Translations under genes and position numbers: made by a program
Assembly: GCA_031371785.1 (NCBI GenBank)
Contig: JANMKC010000018.1
Coordinates: forward strand, 4,266-68,265
From: Flavobacteriales bacterium
Lineage (GTDB): Bacteria > Bacteroidota > Bacteroidia > Flavobacteriales_F > PHOS-HE28
Direction: 5' to 3'
DNA: 64,000 bases
Shown here: positions 840 through 55,999 of the stretch, one piece after another
Numbering within the stretch: position 1 is the first letter of the stretch
How the letters are laid out: every line of letters begins with the position of its first letter
The notes under the pieces: model-generated
What the model saw: the letters and a program-made list of their open reading frames with translations, nothing else
Told to the model about the DNA's origin: nothing
Databases searched by the model: none

Positions 840-1589
840 ATGAAACTGAATCTGAAGATCTGGCGCCAGAAAGGTCCGAACGACAAGGGCCAGATGAAGG
901 ACTATCCCGTGAGCAACGTGTCCGAGGACATGTCCTTCCTCGAGATGCTCGACGTGCTGAACGACGAGATCATTAGAAAGGGTGACGATCCGATCGCCTT
1001 CGATCACGATTGCCGCGAAGGCATCTGCGGAAGTTGCAGCCTCTTCATCAATGGCGAAGCGCATGGTCCGGGTCGCGGGATCACCACTTGCCAGTTGCAC
1101 ATGCGCAGGTTCACGGATGGCGACACCATCCATGTGGAACCTTGGCGCGCCAAGGCGTTCCCGGTGATCAAGGATCTTGCGGTGGATCGTGGCGCCTTCG
1201 ATCGTATTCAAGCGGCCGGCGGTTTCGTGAGCGTGAACACGAGCGGCAACCTCGTCGATGGCAATGCGGTGCCGATCCCGAAGGATGATGCTGATAAGGC
1301 CTTTGATGCTGCTACATGCATTGGCTGCGGCGCTTGCGTCGCGACTTGCCCGAACGGATCAGCGATGTTGTTCGTTGCGGCGAAAGTCTCACAATTCGCA
1401 TTGTTGCCCCAAGGCCGTCCTGAAGCCAAGTCGCGCGCGCTGGCGATGGTGGAGCAGATGGACAAGGAAGGCTTCGGCAATTGCAGCAACACAGGCGCGT
1501 GCGAGATCGAGTGCCCGAAGAACATCAGCTTGGAGCACATTGCGCGGATGAACAGGGAGTACTTGGCAGCGACGTTGACGAAGGAGTGA
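840..1589 (+). CDS. sdhB: succinate dehydrogenase/fumarate reductase iron-sulfur subunit
   Basis: 2Fe-2S and 4Fe-4S cysteine clusters: [37 protein letters not shown]. Confidence 0.9.
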
Positions 1590-1657
1590 GCGATGGCCTT
1601 GGACGTTTGTTCCCGATCGGGGCCCGGCTATCTTTCGCACGAGCAACATCCTCTCCC

Positions 1658-3085
1658 GTGAAGCGGTATTCCCATCTTTTCATTCTCTGGCTTTTGCAAG
1701 GAACAGGTTCCGCGCAGACGCCCGAGCTATGGGGCATGACCTCTGGCGGAGGCACCAACCACCTCGGCAGCATATTCAGGATCTTCGGTGATGGCAGCGG
1801 GTACGAGACCATCTTCTCCTTCGACTCGCTCTCCGGCTACGGGCCGGAAGGCAGCTTGTGCCTGGCGAACGACGGGCTGCTCTACGGGATGACACGCTTC
1901 GGTGGGTTGTCCGACAGCGGCGCGGTATTCCGGATCGATCCAACCACAGGCGTGTACGACAAACTGCTCGACCTCCACGACACCATCGGCGCACATCCGT
2001 ACGGCGACCTGATGCAGGCGAGTGATGGTCTGCTTTATGGCATGACCTACGAGGGCGGGAATTGGCATCAAGGCACCTTCTTCAGCTATGAGATCGCCAC
2101 GGGCATGCATACTCGGCTGATCGACTTCACGGGCTACCTCGGCGCTTATCCGTTCCAGAGCGTGGTGCAGTCACCGGGGAACGGCAAACTCTACGGGATC
2201 ACCCGGTCGGGTGGCTACTTCAACAAGGGTTGCGTATTCAGCTATGACCTGGCAACCGGTCACGCGGAGCACGAGTTCTACGGCTTCGATGACCTGGTGG
2301 GAAAGTATCCCACGGGCAACCTGTGCATGGCCCCCAACGGATACTACTACGGCACTACCTCACAAGGCGGCCCTTGGCTCCAGGGGAACGTGTTCCGGTT
2401 CGATTCCACGGCGAACGAATGTGTGAACACCTACACGTTCCATGGCGTGTACGGCTCGGATCCGGAGGGAAGTCTGGTCGTTGGTGCGGATGGCAAACTA
2501 TACGGAACCACCGGTGGCGGCGGCGATCATGGCTATGGTACGCTATTCCGTTTCGCCACGTCGAGCAACGTGTTCGAGATCCTCCATGATTTCGGCGACG
2601 GCGGTACGGACGGTCTCGGGCCAAAAGGCAGCCTGCTGCTCGCAAGCGATGGGAACATGTACGGCACGACTTCGACCGGGTACGTCGGAGTGTCCGGTTC
2701 GGTCTTCAAATACGATCCAGGCGCGAACGCTTACTCCGTCATCCATCTTTTTGATGAGCCGGAAACAGCCCGGCCAGAAGGCAGCCTGATCGAAGTGAAC
2801 GCGCCGAACAGCATGGATGAAGCGGGCAGAGAACAAGCCGGGCTCGAAGTGTACCCGGATCCTACATCCGGGCCAGTGGTGGTGCGTTCCTCGAACGATG
2901 CCGGACGGATCCGGAACGTGCGGCTTTTCGACCTGCTCGGAATAGAGTTGATCGTTCCGGGAACCCGGGTGGTGATCGCACGGGCCTCCTTGGAACTGGA
3001 CCTCACAGGACTTGCGTCGGGCCAATACGTGGTGAAGGCGATTGTGGACGATGGTATCCGAAGATGCAAGGTGATGAAGGAGTAA
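1658..3085 (+). CDS. secreted repeat protein (GloVer-type G..LYGTT..GG repeats) with a T9SS type A C-terminal sorting domain
   Basis: GTG start gives a signal peptide KRYSHLFILWLLQGTGSAQ; at least 7 reiterated ...G(K/L)LYG(T/M)T..GG..G.G..F... units; C-terminus VYPDPTSG...VRLFDLLG...VVKAIVDDG is typical of a T9SS type A domain. Confidence 0.7.
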   Translation: MKRYSHLFILWLLQGTGSAQTPELWGMTSGGGTNHLGSIFRIFGDGSGYETIFSFDSLSGYGPEGSLCLANDGLLYGMTRFGGLSDSGAVFRIDPTTGVYDKLLDLHDTIGAHPYGDLMQASDGLLYGMTYEGGNWHQGTFFSYEIATGMHTRLIDFTGYLGAYPFQSVVQSPGNGKLYGITRSGGYFNKGCVFSYDLATGHAEHEFYGFDDLVGKYPTGNLCMAPNGYYYGTTSQGGPWLQGNVFRFDSTANECVNTYTFHGVYGSDPEGSLVVGADGKLYGTTGGGGDHGYGTLFRFATSSNVFEILHDFGDGGTDGLGPKGSLLLASDGNMYGTTSTGYVGVSGSVFKYDPGANAYSVIHLFDEPETARPEGSLIEVNAPNSMDEAGREQAGLEVYPDPTSGPVVVRSSNDAGRIRNVRLFDLLGIELIVPGTRVVIARASLELDLTGLASGQYVVKAIVDDGIRRCKVMKE

Positions 3086-3210
3086 GACCTTCGTCCGGCA
3101 ACAACGGGAACGTGGCGCACGTCATTTCGATCATCGGAACATGGATGGCGGAAGCCGGTCGGCTTAGTTTCGGCCCAAATGTCCTCCATCACATCGGGCC
3201 GACCGATCCA

Positions 3211-3260
3211 GAGCAAACTCCCCCACGTTCGCACCACCCTCTTCACGGTGATGAGCAAGC
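3211..3260. repeat. degenerate upstream copy of the aminotransferase 5' coding end (direct repeat, copy 1)
   Basis: 47 of 50 nt identical to 3995-4044 (gagcaaactcccccacg...cttcacggtgatgagcaagc). Confidence 0.8.
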
Positions 3261-3299
3261 CGGTCGGCAACGGCGCAGCGGTCGCTCATACCTTTGAAC

Positions 3300-3755
3300 A
3301 TGCGCTTGTACTTGGACACTTCGGTTTACGGCGGCTACTTCGAGCCTGAGTTCGAGAAGTGGACGAAGCCGCTTTTCCAAAAGATCATGGACGGCGATCA
3401 CAAGTTGCTGCGTTCGCCATTGGTGGATATTGAATTGCAGGGTGCGCCAGTCCATGTCCGGAACCTCTTGACGGTGATACCTCAACGTTGTGTGGAACAT
3501 ATAGAAACCGGCAAGCAAGTGGATGACCTTGCCTTGGAATACGTCAAGGCCAAGGTTGTCGGAGAGACCAGTTTCACCGACTGCCAACACATCGCGTTGG
3601 CCACGCTCGTTCACGCGGATGTCCTCATCAGCTGGAACTTCAAGCACATCGTGAACGTGCCGCGTATCCGTGGTTACAACTCCGTGAACATGCGGCTTGG
3701 ACTTGGCCTGTTGGAGATGCGCACACCCATTGAACTTTTTGCACATGGCAGCTAA
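3300..3755 (+). CDS. PIN-like domain protein, possible toxin
   Basis: N-terminal LYLDTSVYGG (first PIN acidic residue), later acidic positions LVDIEL, TDCQHIALA, and a C-terminal WNFKHIV motif; TTG at 3294 or ATG at 3300. Confidence 0.5.
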   Translation: MRLYLDTSVYGGYFEPEFEKWTKPLFQKIMDGDHKLLRSPLVDIELQGAPVHVRNLLTVIPQRCVEHIETGKQVDDLALEYVKAKVVGETSFTDCQHIALATLVHADVLISWNFKHIVNVPRIRGYNSVNMRLGLGLLEMRTPIELFAHGS

Positions 3756-3963
3756 ACCGAACATCCAAGGGTCCATGATGGAAGATCTGCGATCTCTCCG
3801 CGACGTGCTGAACAAGAAGCTTCTGGCAATGTCGCCGGAAGAGCGCATCGCCTACATCAATTCCCTCGGCGCGATCGACCCGACGAAGAAAAAGCCCCGC
3901 GTGGTGAAGCGAGCAAGGCCCGTGGTCAAGCGCAGGCGTACCGCAGCCAAGCAACGCGCATGA
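3745..3963 (+). CDS. small protein with a basic C-terminal tail, possible antitoxin or partner of the PIN protein
   Basis: MAAKPNIQGSMMEDLRSLRDVLNKKLLAMSPEERIAYINSLG...KRARPVVKRRRTAAKQRA; overlaps the 3' end of the PIN gene by 11 nt. Confidence 0.4.
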   Translation: MAAKPNIQGSMMEDLRSLRDVLNKKLLAMSPEERIAYINSLGAIDPTKKKPRVVKRARPVVKRRRTAAKQRA

Positions 3964-5126
3964 TCGTTCGTTCTTCTGCTTTGCCCGTCGTGAAGAGCAA
4001 ACTCCCCCACGTCGGCACCACCATCTTCACGGTGATGAGCAAGCTGGCGCAGGAGTGCGACGCCATCAATCTGAGCCAGGGCTTTCCGGATTTTCCGATC
4101 GACGAGAAACTGAGCGACCTCGTGCATGCCGCTATGAACGCGGGTCACAACCAGTACGCGCCCATGCCGGGCCTGCCCGCGTTGCGCGAGGCGATCGCTG
4201 CGAAAGTGGAACGGCTCTATGGCTTCAGCTATGATGTGGAGACGGAAGTCACGGTGACGGCCGGTGGAACGCAAGCCATTTTCACGGCGATCGGTGCGGT
4301 GGTGCAACGCGGTGATGAAGTGATCATCGTGGACCCTGCGTACGACTGCTATGCACCGACGGTGGAACTCTTCGGAGGAACGCCCGTGCATGTGCGGCTT
4401 GGTGGCAATATGAAGTTCGATGCCGATGCGGTGCAACGGGCCATCACACCGAAGACGCGCGTGCTGATGATCAACACGCCGCACAATCCGGCTGGTACGA
4501 TCCTGCGCGACGCGGACATGAAGCGCATCGCCGATATGCTGCGCGGCACGGACATCATCCTGTTGAGCGATGAAGTGTACGAGCATCTCATCTTCGAGAA
4601 CGAGGAGCACGCTTCGGTGATCCGCTATCCGGAGCTGCGCGAACGCGCCTTCGTGATCTTCAGCTTCGGCAAGGTGTTCCACGCCACCGGCTGGAAAATG
4701 GGCTATGCGCTCGCGCCGAAAGAGTTGATGACGGAGTTCCGGAAAGTGCACCAGTTCAATGTGTTCAGCGTGAACACCCCGATACAGCACGCGCTCGCCG
4801 AATACCTCAAGGACCCGATGAACTACGAGGGCGTGTCCAGCTTCTACGCCGACAAGCGCGACCGCTTCCTGATCGGTCTGCGCGTATCGCGCTTCACGCC
4901 ACTGGCCTGCGAAGGCAGTTACTTCCAACTGGCCGACTACAGCCGCATCAGCGATGAACCTGATATCGATTTCGCGAAGCGCTTGACGAAGGAGTTCGGT
5001 GTCGCCGCGATCCCGATCAGTGTGTTCTACAAGGATCCACCGAAGGACCAACGCATCCTGCGCTTCTGTTTCGCGAAAGAGGGTGAAACGCTGGACAACG
5101 CCATCGAGAAGCTATGCGCGATCTGA
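3960..5126 (+). CDS. ybdL: PLP-dependent aminotransferase, class I/II (YbdL-like methionine aminotransferase)
   Basis: TTIFTVMSKLAQE...NLSQGFPDFP...YAPMPGLPALREAIA...SFGKVFHATGWKMGY (PLP-binding lysine context). Confidence 0.85.
   Translation: MIVRSSALPVVKSKLPHVGTTIFTVMSKLAQECDAINLSQGFPDFPIDEKLSDLVHAAMNAGHNQYAPMPGLPALREAIAAKVERLYGFSYDVETEVTVTAGGTQAIFTAIGAVVQRGDEVIIVDPAYDCYAPTVELFGGTPVHVRLGGNMKFDADAVQRAITPKTRVLMINTPHNPAGTILRDADMKRIADMLRGTDIILLSDEVYEHLIFENEEHASVIRYPELRERAFVIFSFGKVFHATGWKMGYALAPKELMTEFRKVHQFNVFSVNTPIQHALAEYLKDPMNYEGVSSFYADKRDRFLIGLRVSRFTPLACEGSYFQLADYSRISDEPDIDFAKRLTKEFGVAAIPISVFYKDPPKDQRILRFCFAKEGETLDNAIEKLCAI
3995..4044. repeat. direct repeat copy 2 (the functional 5' coding end of the aminotransferase gene)
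   Basis: see 3211-3260. Confidence 0.8.
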
Positions 5127-5908
5127 GGGTGACGCTCGTGCAGAACATGCTGCACTGGGAAGATGCGGCAACGAACCGTGCCATGTTCGCGGAGAAGCTC
5201 GCCGCATTGAAGGGCACCACGGACCTCATCGTGCTACCGGAAATGTTCACGACCGGTTTCAGCATGCGCAGCAGGGAACTCGCGGAGACAATGGATGGCG
5301 TTACCGTGAAGTGGATGATTGAGCAGGCGCTTGCATTGAACGCCGCGATCTATGGCAGTGTGATCATCGCCGACGGCGGCAACCATTTCAATCGCGGGCT
5401 GTTCGTTACGCCGTCAGGACAAGTCACAGCATACGACAAGCGCCACCTCTTCCGCATGGCGGAGGAGAAGGACAACTATGCGCGCGGCGACAAACGTGTG
5501 ATCGTGGAACTGAACGGCTGGCGGATCCTCTTGCAAGTGTGCTACGACCTTCGCTTTCCCGTCTTCGCACGCTCCCGCAGTATTGCGGGACGCAGCGACT
5601 ATGACGCGATCATCTACGCGGCCAACTGGCCGGAGGCTCGGCGTTACCCATGGAGCCAATTGCTGATCGCCCGCGCGATCGAGAACCAGTGCTGTGTGAT
5701 CGGCGTGAACCGCGTGGGCATGGATGGAAAAGGACACCACTACACAGGCGATTCCGTGGCGATCGATGCGAAAGGACAGGTGTTCGCTTCGTGCGATGCG
5801 GGCCAGGAACGTATCATCACTTGCTTGCTCGATCGCGCTGCGCTCGACGACTTCCGTGAGAAGTTCCCGGTGGAAAAAGACGCTGACGATTTCGAACTGC
5901 GCCTTTAG
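5114..5908 (+). CDS. yafV: carbon-nitrogen hydrolase family amidohydrolase (YafV-like omega-amidase)
   Basis: nitrilase-superfamily E-K-C catalytic triad contexts (PEMFTTGF..., KRHLF, CYDLRFP); 13-nt overlap with the upstream aminotransferase gene. Confidence 0.85.
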   Translation: MRDLRVTLVQNMLHWEDAATNRAMFAEKLAALKGTTDLIVLPEMFTTGFSMRSRELAETMDGVTVKWMIEQALALNAAIYGSVIIADGGNHFNRGLFVTPSGQVTAYDKRHLFRMAEEKDNYARGDKRVIVELNGWRILLQVCYDLRFPVFARSRSIAGRSDYDAIIYAANWPEARRYPWSQLLIARAIENQCCVIGVNRVGMDGKGHHYTGDSVAIDAKGQVFASCDAGQERIITCLLDRAALDDFREKFPVEKDADDFELRL

Positions 5909-48421: not shown

Positions 48422-48484
48422 ACCCCATCTGCGCGAGTCTGCCAGACTTGTCCAGTTGGCCCCCAATCTCGCGCGAGTGTTAGG

Positions 48485-48549
48485 CCTCTGGCGGTGAACA
48501 AGTCTCGCGAACAGATGGCCAGAGGCAAAGAACGACCTTGCCGATCGGC
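48485..48549. repeat. 65-nt direct repeat H, copy 1, with an internal 9-bp-stem hairpin
   Basis: 63 of 65 nt identical to 49863-49927; stem gcctctggc (48484-48492) / gccagaggc (48518-48526), loop 25 nt. Confidence 0.85.
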
Positions 48550-48575
48550 TTGAGCAAGGCGAGCGACGGGATGGA

Positions 48576-48848
48576 TCAATACACCTCGTCGTGCGTTCCG
48601 ATGTCGATCAGCAGCACCTTGCTCTGGCCCTTGAGGAAAACGAATACCACGCGGCAGTCGTGGTCCACGCTGAACGCCCAGCAATGGCTGAGCTTCCCGG
48701 TGAGCTTGTGCGTCATAAGCCCGGCGGCGAAAGGGTCCGATGCGAAGAGCTGTAGTGCGTCCCAGAACCGTTGCTTCAGCAACGCATCAGGGCTGATGCG
48801 CTTATTATAGGAACGCTTGAAGCCTGCATCCCAAACCAGCTCGATCAT
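48576..48848 (-). CDS. type II toxin-antitoxin system RelE/YafQ-family toxin
   Basis: ...KLTGKLSHCWAFSVDHDCRVVFVFL...LLIDIGTHDEVY. Confidence 0.8.
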   Translation of the reverse strand: MIELVWDAGFKRSYNKRISPDALLKQRFWDALQLFASDPFAAGLMTHKLTGKLSHCWAFSVDHDCRVVFVFLKGQSKVLLIDIGTHDEVY

Positions 48849-49057
48849 GCTTCCAGGTCCTTGCGCAGGTCGGAGACCTTGCCCTTGCGCACCTTGCGCG
48901 CCTTGAGGTTCCGAGCGGCCATCTTCACGCGGATAACCAGCGCCTCCCGCGCGGCCTCCGCATAAGCCTTACGAATGATGCCAGCGGCGTACTCCTTCTC
49001 CTCCATGGGCAGGGCATCGAACTGCTCGATCACCGTATTGATGTCCTGGGTTCTCAT
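48845..49057 (-). CDS. antitoxin (RelB/DinJ-like) paired with the RelE-family toxin
   Basis: 70-aa gene overlapping the toxin start by 4 nt; TATCTTTG promoter-like motif ~20 nt upstream. Confidence 0.6.
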   Translation of the reverse strand: MRTQDINTVIEQFDALPMEEKEYAAGIIRKAYAEAAREALVIRVKMAARNLKARKVRKGKVSDLRKDLEA

Positions 49058-49090
49058 GGAGTTGGAAGTATGCTTCAAAGATAGGAGGCC

Positions 49091-49182
49091 GATACCCCCG
49101 ATCTCCCCCCCGAACACACGCTCGGGTGCGGCGCATCTCCGCCGCTCGGCTTATCCGCAAGCAACAAAGTCTGCCGATCGGC
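49091..49182. promoter_or_regulatory. ~93-nt repeat U, copy A (shared upstream element of the antitoxin genes)
   Basis: ~87% identical to 49754-49846; lies 34 nt upstream of the antitoxin ATG, next to a TAnnTTTG-like motif. Confidence 0.6.
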
Positions 49183-49200
49183 GGGATCGAAGTTGCCGCA

Positions 49201-49500
49201 CTATTTCTTCCGCTTGAACTTCTTCTTGGGGTCTTGGCTGGTGTGGAAGATGCGGTACACGACGATGGCATCGTCGAACACTTCGTAGATGATCACGAAC
49301 GGAAAGCCGTCCAACGGTGCTTGCCGGAAACGCTTGTACACGACCTGGAACCCTTTCGGGAACTGCACGATGTACTTCGCACAGTTCTCCACTTCAGCAA
49401 GGAAACGTTCATCAAGCCCAATCTGTCGTTGCCGATACCACCACATGGACTCCGCGATGTCCGTGTCGGCATCATCGCGGTAGATGAGCTTGCGGTTCAT
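49201..49500 (-). CDS. type II toxin-antitoxin system ParE/RelE-family toxin
   Basis: ...ESMWWYRQRQ...LDERFLAEVE...FPFVIIYEVFDDAIVVYRIFHTSQDP. Confidence 0.8.
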   Translation of the reverse strand: MNRKLIYRDDADTDIAESMWWYRQRQIGLDERFLAEVENCAKYIVQFPKGFQVVYKRFRQAPLDGFPFVIIYEVFDDAIVVYRIFHTSQDPKKKFKRKK

Positions 49501-49727
49501 CCACGCGCTGCTTTGCGTGCGCGTCGTCTCATTTGTTCCGGCGTGTAGCTCTTCCCTTCGCCGCGCAGGTAGCGTTTGCGCGCTTCATCCAATTCGGCTT
49601 TTTGCTCATCGCTCAGTTCGAAGCGGGTGCCGTGGTTCATGATCATATCCACGGAGCGCAACTGCGATTCGCTTTCGGTATCGAGGATCTGCTTGGCCAG
49701 CGCGACTTTCAGTTCAGTGAGCTTCAT
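49497..49727 (-). CDS. antitoxin (putative addiction-module component) paired with the ParE-family toxin
   Basis: MKLTELKVALAKQILDTESESQLRSV...SDEQKAELDEARKRY; 4-nt overlap with the toxin; TAGTTTTG motif upstream. Confidence 0.65.
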   Translation of the reverse strand: MKLTELKVALAKQILDTESESQLRSVDMIMNHGTRFELSDEQKAELDEARKRYLRGEGKSYTPEQMRRRARKAARG

Positions 49728-49753
49728 GCGGGTCGTTGTTGCCCCAAAACTAC

Positions 49754-49846
49754 GATGCCCCGATCGCACCACCTCCGAACCCACGCTCGGGTGCGGTGCA
49801 TCTCCGCCACTCGGCTTGACCGCGAGCAACAACGTCTGCCGCTCGG
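49754..49846. promoter_or_regulatory. ~93-nt repeat U, copy B
   Basis: see 49091-49182. Confidence 0.6.
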
Positions 49847-49862
49847 TGTGCGGTGCGTTCCG

Positions 49863-49927
49863 CCTCTGGCGGTCAACAAGTCTCACGAACAGATGGCCAG
49901 AGGCAAAGAACGACCTTGCCGATCGGC
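49863..49927. repeat. 65-nt direct repeat H, copy 2
   Basis: see 48485-48549; stem 49862-49870 / 49896-49904. Confidence 0.85.
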
Positions 49928-49971
49928 CTCATCACAGATAGGAAAAGCCCAGCGGCAGGATGGAGAAGAGT

Positions 49972-55895: not shown

Positions 55896-55902
55896 GTCTC
55901 GA

Positions 55903-55999
55903 CTGCGCTCGACCTGACAAATACGGCTGCGCTCGACCTGACAAATACGGCTCCGCTCGACTTGACAAATACGGCTCCGCTCGGCTTGACAGATGATCG
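55903..55999. repeat. tandem 24-bp direct repeats (about 4 units), each containing a (T/C)TGACA motif
   Basis: ctgcgctcgacctgacaaatacgg twice exactly, then ctccgctcgacttgacaaatacgg, then a degenerate fourth unit. Confidence 0.85.

Follow-up and report, generated by a model that had tools for sequence, protein, structure and literature searches.

We examined a 64,000-nucleotide stretch of contig JANMKC010000018.1 from a Flavobacteriales bacterium (hereafter the window, in whose coordinates all positions are given unless a related locus is named) and found that a small two-gene cassette has inserted in the 5′ coding end of a methionine aminotransferase (ybdL-like) gene, carrying with it a replacement start for that gene and leaving the resident start behind as a relic. 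The cassette encodes a predicted VapC-like PIN-domain protein and a small partner, and we interpret it, with a confidence that only modestly exceeds even, as a selfish toxin-antitoxin-type cassette that regenerates the start of the gene it enters and is spread by homologous recombination. The interpretation draws on a comparison of about 100 related loci from reference genomes and metagenomes, which are referred to by L-numbers throughout.

Two copies of the aminotransferase 5′ end

The cassette lies between the two arms of a direct repeat, at 3210-3263 and 3994-4047, which are 54 nt long, 93% identical, and spaced by 784 nt, and which were returned as one family in a repeat search. A sequence-only reading of this DNA had described a near-identical duplication of the aminotransferase 5′ end at this place, which is borne out and extended to the length given here, and it had left room for the duplicated segment being a common repeat. 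When the 64 kb were searched with a 51-nt pattern of the repeat, allowing at most 3 mismatches, 2 sites only were found, with 0 expected from 100 shuffles; the 54-nt repeat is therefore unique in the 64 kb and not a common one. The same reading took the downstream copy for the in-frame start of the aminotransferase, and it does lie in frame within the open reading frame (ORF) 3960-5126 on the plus strand. This ORF is an intact methionine aminotransferase, scoring 587.8 bits against NCBIfam NF006569 (cutoff 420, E 1e-176; residues 8-388 against profile positions 5-386) and matching Pfam Aminotran_1_2 at E 5.8e-55. Its regenerated 5′ end spans 3960..4085 (plus strand) and comprises a new ATG, the N-terminus MIVRSSALPVVK, the downstream repeat copy, and the sequence up to Gly41/Phe42. 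This N-terminus is linked to the cassette; the same leader also comes after the small gene of the cassette in L001, L002, and L159, even where no intact aminotransferase lies downstream.

The upstream copy had been called frame-dead, and here the earlier reading was mistaken: it lies in frame behind an ATG at 3179, from which it reads MSSITSGRPIQSKLPHVRTTLFTVMSK, and it matches positions 7-32 of the NF006569 profile (E 0.007). It is dead because it is truncated and carries G-to-R and I-to-L changes within the otherwise invariant PHVGTTIF motif. The upstream copy is the original 5′ end of the aminotransferase, truncated and decaying. This relic occupies 3179..3263 on the plus strand, beginning at its own ATG and continuing into the upstream repeat copy, and the ORF that starts there runs on to 3349, beyond the aminotransferase-derived sequence. 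At its N-terminus, the relic is similar to the native aminotransferases of L004 and L128. When aligned by eye with the relics found in L001, L003, and L011, the segment 3257..3288 (plus strand) looks like the degenerate rest of the relic, and we infer that this segment is a decayed copy of a 16-nt hairpin insert, TCCGCCGTTCGGCGGA, combined with a deletion of ~35 nt that took the Gly41 boundary.

In Logan SRR20217206 (L162), which was assembled independently, the arrangement is the same and only 1 of 1148 aligned nt differs, which excludes a chimeric assembly or other assembly artefact. As a separate observation, an exact 12-nt direct repeat, AAGCCGGTCGGC, is present at 3152-3163 and 3257-3268, one copy just upstream of the promoter box of the native aminotransferase (see below) and the other within the degenerate hairpin region of the relic; it may be due to chance or be the trace of a microhomology-mediated rearrangement.

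Empty and filled sites in related genomes

A scan of reference genomes with the aminotransferase provided ~48 loci, from one clade of uncultured Flavobacteriales and mostly from activated-sludge metagenome-assembled genomes, and a scan of metagenomes with an exact 26-mer of the repeat provided 69 further loci. The gene order of the succinate dehydrogenase Fe-S subunit (sdhB), the aminotransferase, and a CN-hydrolase is kept across the ~100 related loci, and in tblastn searches sdhB was 80-92% identical and upstream of the aminotransferase in most of them. The spacer between sdhB and the aminotransferase ranges from 17-140 bp in many genomes, where it is empty, up to ~2.6 kb; the uninterrupted spacer that the sequence-only reading had proposed looking for in relatives is this short form, in which sdhB is followed by the aminotransferase with only those 17-140 bp between them.

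Before-and-after pairs among these loci document the entry of cassettes. In L137, L125, and L030, a membrane-protein gene is followed directly by the aminotransferase (the empty state), and in L005 and L028 the same membrane-protein gene is followed by a relic, a DUF433-DUF5615 gene pair, and then the aminotransferase (the filled state). For cassettes that combine MNT (nucleotidyltransferase) and HEPN genes, L107 and L143 are empty and L094 is filled. Within these matched pairs the relic keeps the resident stop-to-start spacer and the start codon, and the N-terminus of the functional copy depends on the type of cassette, examples being MAIxSKLPH directly after the HEPN stop and M(I/S)VRxx...K after the stop of the small gene. 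The empty relatives and, decisively, the before-and-after pairs support the earlier claim that a cassette integrated into, or recombined with, a housekeeping gene at its 5′ end and restored the start of that gene.

Where the spacer is filled, it holds accessory genes and, adjoining the aminotransferase, small toxin-antitoxin operons, and the Pfam families of the relatives' cassettes at this site are PIN_3, DUF433, DUF5615, MNT, HepT (HEPN), and ParE. The cassette type of the window, a PIN gene with its small partner (PIN+small), is shared by L001-L003, L011/L093, and L158-L162. MNT-HEPN cassettes are found in L009/L108, L020, L094, L102, and L117; the DUF433-DUF5615 cassette in L005 and L028; DUF433 plus a ParE pair in L009/L108; and a reverse-oriented PIN_3 pair in L001, L002, L010, L038, L047, L092, and L128. 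On these gene contents, the sdhB-aminotransferase spacer is a hotspot in which at least five toxin-antitoxin families have inserted alike. Of the single cassette event that had been proposed from the window, the insertion stands and the notion of a one-off does not, as the window is one case of a recurrent cassette hotspot. Of the relatives found, L128 is the closest, with an aminotransferase 97% identical to that of the window, and it carries a reversed PIN_3 cassette instead of PIN+small; a different cassette beside a near-identical gene indicates that turnover is fast.

Relics of the aminotransferase start precede most of the cassettes. With nhmmer, extra copies of the 5′ block were found not only in the window but also in L001, L003-L005, L007-L009, L011, L020, L028, L047, L051, L093, L094, L096, L108, L117, and L158-L160, and a heavily decayed relic that nhmmer missed was seen by eye in L161. 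All co-directional toxin-antitoxin cassettes with a readable left flank have a relic, with the exceptions of L002, where few nucleotides of it are left, and L102, whose relic is doubtful. Relic-cassette-relic-cassette arrays are present in L009/L108 and in L001, and the second relic of L001 has the N-terminus linked to PIN+small, which implies that the reversed PIN_3 cassette of this locus entered later and on the gene-proximal side.

Given that the same architecture is found with different cargos in >15 independent genomes or assemblies, that the independent run SRR20217206 repeats the window structure, and that the functional N-terminus tracks the cassette and not the genome, it is highly improbable that the arrangement is a one-off strain accident, produced by local tandem duplication or by homology-facilitated illegitimate recombination, or an assembly chimera. 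Such a reading could appeal to relic boundaries that are not all identical, to duplications of the sdhB 3′ end that show untidy recombination at the locus, and to the relics of the window and L020, which are about as close to their own functional copy as to any other; it is nonetheless already largely refuted.

Loci that lack sdhB upstream represent rearranged chromosomal contexts (with a deaminase, a C5-methyltransferase, or others), and no large element or integrase was found in them. Two of these, L040 (645-1976) and L041 (4620-5951), have, immediately upstream of the aminotransferase, a 443-aa ORF encoded by the minus strand. Read from its N-terminal motif, this ORF is a candidate cytosine-5 DNA methyltransferase-like gene, and it would possibly be another selfish module.

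Junctions and markers in the relics

The most frequent relic end is at Gly41/Phe42, where homology ends at ...AACCTCAGCCAGGGC(TTT), after Gly41 or Phe42 (window 4082 or 4085). PIN+small and MNT-HEPN junctions continue from there with nnTAYnTTTGrr(n)ATG, and the left ends of the cassettes read TTTACATTTGAGCATG or TGATCACTTC. Cassette ends are tight, beginning at a promoter box or a stop codon. Other relic boundaries fall at ~codon 35 (DUF433 cassettes), ~codon 27 (L007/L096), ~codon 47-49 (the second relic of L003), and ~codon 47 (the relic of L051). Relics also carry markers that are linked to the type of the adjoining cassette: the 16-nt hairpin insert marks those adjoining PIN+small in L001, L003/L158, L011/L093, and, in degenerate form, the window, and a junction of the form ...GGCGCATTGCCC is found in those adjoining DUF433 in L005, L028, and L009.

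Duplications are also seen at the other flank of the spacer. An aminotransferase 5′ relic in L008 (1628-1730) is joined to 18 nt copied from the 3′ end of sdhB, and in L023 (5711-5794) 84 nt of that sdhB end recur downstream of an accessory gene; at the sdhB flank, these events mirror the ones at the aminotransferase.

Probable spread by homologous recombination and alternatives

The cassette carries its own putative -7 promoter box, the VapC-like PIN gene, the overlapping partner, and a new start followed by ~40 aminotransferase codons. On insertion, the putative resident promoter, the ATG, and the first codons were stranded upstream as a decaying relic, and the aminotransferase is now read from the new ATG that overlaps the partner stop. 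Since this new start is carried by the cassette, loss of the cassette would cost the cell both the antitoxin and the aminotransferase start. The mode of spread is most likely RecA-type homologous recombination. The unit would comprise the cassette together with the relic's 3′ portion on its left and the new 5′ end on its right. With the aminotransferase block, ultra-conserved in nucleotide sequence, on both sides, a linear fragment could enter any genome in which the gene is present, irrespective of the upstream context. A double crossover, on the left between the donor relic and the recipient gene and on the right further along the gene, would recreate the duplication.

Four lines of evidence point to homologous recombination. 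First, across positions 1065-1604 of L003 and the corresponding part of L158 (coordinates minus 104), the flanks are 100% identical and the PIN-small interior is 50-75% identical, with breakpoints inside the cassette, in the conserved N-terminus of the PIN gene and the tail of the small gene; an allelic swap of this kind between identical flanks shows active homologous recombination, and it suggests diversifying turnover of the gene pair. Second, cassette-linked markers are present in the 3′ parts of relics that stand in different left contexts, as would be expected of a left crossover inside the block and not of one at codon 41. Third, the nucleotide sequence of the aminotransferase 5′ block is unusually conserved. 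An exact match to the 26-mer GGCACCACCNTCTTCACGGTGATGAG, translated as GTTIFTVMS, is present in the 69 metagenome loci, 33 of which have an aminotransferase only 37-61% identical to that of the window (e.g., L095, L101, L104, L106, L123, L146, and L149), so that the block would make a good recombination arm across lineages. Fourth, neither an integrase in the spacers, nor an attC-like structure in the block, nor a viral contig with the block was found.

We also considered whether the repeat itself has an origin or structure of another kind. A phage or mobile-element origin was rejected, as the 26-mer had 0 exact matches in IMG/VR, and an attC-like or unusual DNA structure was rejected at fold z values of +0.3 to +1.0 in three contexts, where the repeat folds no better than its shuffles. 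The relics of the window and of L001, both of which carry the hairpin insert, gave fold z values of -1.1 and -1.7, respectively.

Several observations weigh against homologous recombination as a sufficient account. The Gly41/Phe42 boundary is common to PIN+small, MNT-HEPN, reversed PIN_3, and one universal-stress-protein-like (USP-like) cassette, and it recurs in about eight different left contexts and in L004 too. Homologous recombination explains how a junction spreads, not how it was first formed or why it is shared by unrelated cargos, and a shared junction is the pattern expected of a site-specific crossover. PIN+small and MNT-HEPN cassettes share ~20 nt of promoter and start sequence, the junction of L004 looks like the remnant of a PIN_3 junction, and the independent junction events may be as few as two. 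A nearest-neighbour Hamming comparison of relic and functional copies did not tell the foreign copy from the other and was uninformative, given the strong conservation of the block and the advanced decay of the relics.

Because of the shared boundary, a serious rival, which we place on the unlikely side, is that the cassettes are integrase-less mini-elements, similar to cis-mobilizable elements (CIMEs) or to integron cassettes, moved by a site-specific recombinase encoded elsewhere in the genome or on a helper element, with the crossover at Gly41/Phe42. A circular cargo with codons 1-41 would integrate, turning the resident 5′ end into the relic, and further units would be added gene-proximally. 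Such a mechanism would account for one relic boundary occurring with several unrelated cargos and in many left contexts, for arrays with one relic per cassette (L009/L108 and L001), for the later, gene-proximal entry of the reversed PIN_3 cassette in L001, and for the extreme tightness of the cassette ends. Tandem accretion of integrase-less elements at gene ends is moreover documented, both for CIMEs (PMC5704250) and for the Dehalococcoides ssrA islands (PMC3146451).

A recombinase is, however, what the searches failed to find. No integrase was present in the ~100 spacers examined, whole genomes not having been searched for a recombinase encoded elsewhere; a crude regular-expression search found no tyrosine-recombinase motif in the 64-kb window, and Pfam searches of 10 neighbouring ORFs, likewise a crude test, gave housekeeping families only. 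The cargo side of the junctions shows no conserved sequence or dyad, there is no attC-like fold, and the exact scan of IMG/VR found no viral or mobile-element copy of the site. Site-specific crossover also fits poorly with the other boundaries at codons ~27, ~35, and ~47-49 and with the sdhB 3′-end duplications of L008 and L023, and the cassette-linked markers in the left relics would not have been placed there by a crossover at codon 41. A start-regenerating cassette system not described so far, with the sdhB-aminotransferase site as its platform, would mobilise toxin-antitoxin operons as minimal units that share only the first 41 codons, inserted by a trans-acting recombinase or nuclease specific for Gly41/Phe42. 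It would be integron-like, with a coding segment in place of attC and with each arriving cassette capturing the expression of the host gene; we consider this unlikely.

It is very doubtful that the cassettes are the last remnants of prophages, integrative conjugative elements, or integrative mobilizable elements that integrated themselves in the aminotransferase 5′ end and were deleted down to an addiction module, because no large element or integrase was found at the site in the ~100 loci, where the largest spacer is ~2.6 kb. Direct repeats that flank an insert and regenerate a gene end do classically mark integrase-mediated insertion, toxin-antitoxin modules resist loss more than any other part of such elements, and decay to integrase-less remnants is documented (PMC5704250). 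The number of coincidences required is nevertheless large, as at least five independent elements would each have to be trimmed to an operon within a few nucleotides of both junctions, and no phage contig with the attachment block was found. Spread of small toxin-antitoxin-type cassettes by homologous recombination is the reading that we favour.

The PIN gene and its small partner

The sequence-only reading had placed a two-gene module between the repeat copies, and both genes are real, the PIN gene having 4705 homologues and its partner being conserved downstream of it. The first gene (3300..3755, plus strand) encodes a 151-aa PIN-domain (VapC-like) protein, a putative toxin identified from its homologues, an AlphaFold2 (AF2) model, and a Foldseek search. 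The protein has at least 4705 homologues, many of them named PIN domain-containing protein with matches to PF01850; for the single homologue that was looked up, the precomputed PF01850 match is marked as faint. The protein itself gave no meaningful match in Pfam, NCBIfam, PADLOC, PDB phmmer, or PDB profile searches, and weak matches to lactate dehydrogenase, ClpC, and tail proteins were discarded as noise. Because sequence-based annotation gave nothing, the PIN assignment was settled by structure prediction and fold search. The AF2 model, built on 29 homologues, has a pLDDT of 94, and VapC and other PIN-domain proteins make up nearly all of its top 25 Foldseek matches in the PDB, led by 5x3t_B (VapC; E 4.4e-5, TM 0.57-0.62). 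On the model, the predicted VapC/PIN fold, a Rossmann-like α/β/α sandwich, holds, and the PIN-like identity first proposed is thus confirmed by predicted fold and not by sequence models. Residues D6, E45, D94, and D107 are invariant across 29 aligned sequences, and in our reading of the invariant SWNFKH motif of this family an Asn occupies the position at which canonical VapC should have its final acidic residue.

The second gene (3745..3963, plus strand) encodes a 72-aa protein, a putative antitoxin. The first 11 nt of the gene lie within the end of the PIN gene, and its TGA stop shares an ATGA (3960-3963) with the new aminotransferase ATG. The small gene lies downstream of the PIN gene in every context examined and follows it in L001-L003, L011, L084, L087, and L158-L162. 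In close relatives the small proteins are 58-82% identical to that of the window and occupy the same position, and in distant Bacteroidota and Kapabacteria a small gene without the Lys/Arg tail is found in the same place. A homologue search with the partner protein returned only 3 close matches, so that the link to these distant partners rests on synteny and weak alignment. AF2 predicts helices at residues 7-28 and 31-40 and a disordered Lys/Arg tail (pLDDT 70).

In L010 (5740-7167), the PIN ORF is internally deleted, and the left end of the cassette and the small gene are kept; the small gene of this locus has lost its stop and continues in frame through the aminotransferase, giving an ORF of 475 aa. 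Loss of the toxin with retention of the partner is an asymmetry that would be expected of a toxin and its antitoxin. On the strength of the conserved, overlapping two-gene operon and of the loss of the PIN gene with the small gene kept in L010, a toxin-antitoxin pair in reverse order, with the PIN gene first and the putative antitoxin second, is plausible.

By analogy, we regard the pair as a putative VapBC-type module that is not a canonical member of that group. It resembles VapBC in the predicted VapC fold, the conserved acidic residues D6/E45/D94/D107, which may be those of the active site, the compact overlapping two-gene operon, the presence of other toxin-antitoxin modules nearby, and the existence in L010 of a cassette without a toxin ORF that keeps the partner. 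It differs in that the order of the window pair is reversed, the PIN gene being first and the partner downstream, whereas the canonical antitoxin gene lies upstream. The PIN protein of the window, moreover, has no significant Pfam PIN or PDB sequence match and carries the Asn of SWNFKH, and its partner has no recognisable DNA-binding antitoxin domain, having two predicted helices and a basic tail instead.

Promoter-like boxes and expression

The consensus of the -7 promoter element in Bacteroidetes is TAnnTTTG. A perfect box of this form, TACCTTTG, lies at 3289..3296 on the plus strand, 3 nt before the ATG of the PIN gene, and it is probably the cassette's own promoter, from which a leaderless mRNA would be made. 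There are 9 TAnnTTTG boxes on both strands of the 64 kb, 8 of which lie just before ORF starts, and the -7 box is in the same register in all PIN+small and MNT-HEPN cassettes. The promoter-like -7 box of the native aminotransferase, TAGTTTCG, lies at 3165..3172 (plus strand), 6 nt before the original ATG, its function being predicted from its form and place, and the same TAGTTTCR box is found 6-8 nt before the aminotransferase start in L004, L007, L008, L047, L092, and L128. No terminator-like site was found on the plus strand between 2900 and 5300, which, together with the ATGA overlap, suggests that the aminotransferase is probably co-transcribed and translationally coupled with the cassette. 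One predicted transcript likely comprises the PIN gene, the small gene, the aminotransferase, and the CN-hydrolase.

Comparison with known integrative systems

Several known systems have features in common with the locus. The site-specific integrative elements ICESt1 and ICESt3 at fda regenerate the end of their target gene, and their integrase-less derivatives, CIMEs, are accreted in tandem (PMC5704250); Dehalococcoides carries islands at ssrA (PMC3146451). As in these elements, direct repeats bracket the insert, the gene is restored by the insert, units without an integrase of their own form tandem arrays with repeat copies between them, and empty sites exist. The target in the window, by contrast, is a 5′ end, so that what the insert has to bring is not a 3′ tail but a start codon together with either a promoter or translational coupling. 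The units are also only 0.65-0.9 kb in size and amount to a bare toxin-antitoxin operon, no helper element or integrase was found at the site, the relics have cassette-linked markers, and the boundaries are not uniform.

Integron cassettes are likewise small single-operon units, many of them toxin-antitoxin modules, that are stacked at one chromosomal site, and here as there each unit ends in a shared repeat (~90-125 nt), with the newest unit appearing next to a fixed platform. The repeat of the present locus is, however, a protein-coding segment without an attC-like hairpin, and its cassettes have their own promoters. No GTTRRRY core was found at the cassette junctions, and no IntI-like integrase was found in the window by the crude tyrosine-recombinase motif search, the neighbours being sdhB, the secreted protein, the aminotransferase, and the CN-hydrolase. 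The locus in the window thus fails the attC and IntI tests that define integrons.

With recombination hotspots between core genes, the locus shares a variable spacer between conserved genes, a content that differs in close relatives (L128), and demonstrated breakpoints. Unlike the inserts at such hotspots, those described here enter and duplicate a coding 5′ end instead of replacing intergenic DNA, each cassette gains a portable homology arm, and the expression of a housekeeping gene is tied to the cassette.

Toxin-antitoxin modules are regarded as mobile, selfish two-gene elements (PMC2701414). How chromosomal copies move and persist without a transposase or integrase is poorly documented, and this locus represents a concrete and repeatedly used route, in which a module lands in the first codons of a gene, brings a spare start, and leaves the old one behind. 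The cassette would thereby gain a portable homology arm from one of the most nucleotide-conserved blocks of the gene, and a housekeeping gene that relies on the promoter of the cassette and on translational coupling to it would add a second layer of addiction to that of the putative toxin. As successive arrivals each leave a relic, the site holds a readable record of them. With five toxin-antitoxin families in empty, filled, and arrayed states, these uncultured activated-sludge Flavobacteriales provide a natural test system, in which it can be asked whether RecA alone or a dedicated recombinase moves the cassettes, and whether the reverse-order PIN/small pair works as a toxin-antitoxin system.

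Flanking genes and other repeats in the window

The left anchor of the hotspot is sdhB (840..1589, plus strand) and the right anchor is the intact aminotransferase (3960..5126, plus strand), whose stop is overlapped by the CN-hydrolase gene (5114..5908, plus strand; Pfam CN_hydrolase, E 1.8e-33), which is syntenic in nearly all related loci. Between sdhB and the relic, 1643..3085 (plus strand) encodes an accessory secreted protein with a C-terminal sorting domain of the type IX secretion system (T9SS; Pfam Por_Secre_tail, E 5.5e-5, below the curated cutoff). Among the ~100 related loci this gene is found in the window only, and it represents a strain-specific left context, which adjoined the aminotransferase until the cassette arrived.

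Upstream of sdhB, between it and the end of sdhA, the gene at 330-794 encodes a member of the 23S rRNA-intervening-sequence protein family (PF05635, E 9e-30) and is preceded by a 9-nt tandem repeat, (GTAAGGGAG)n, at 226-306. A PF05635 homologue is in the same place in L017, L018, L020, L021, L025, L028, L032, and L051 and absent in other relatives, and the site may be a second variable spot.

A second toxin-antitoxin array is located at 48479-49934 on the minus strand and involves two repeats, X (copies of 78 nt, 91% identical, with a 9-bp stem) and Y (copies of 75 nt, 88% identical). Along the minus strand it begins with repeat X2 (49934-49857) and repeat Y2 (49846-49772), after which come a TAGTTTTG box, an antitoxin gene with its ATG at 49727, and a ParE toxin gene (49500-49201; PF05016, E 2.5e-8). 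Repeat Y1 (49181-49107), the second antitoxin gene of the array (about 49063-48845), a YafQ-like toxin gene (48848-48576; E 1.7e-5, below cutoff), and repeat X1 (48556-48479) complete it. Toxin-antitoxin modules thus appear again to be bracketed by direct repeats, which here appear to be non-coding, and no copies of X or Y were found in the related loci that were fetched. Further along the window, at 55900-55994, lies a 24-nt tandem repeat of 3-4 copies with 85-94% identity.

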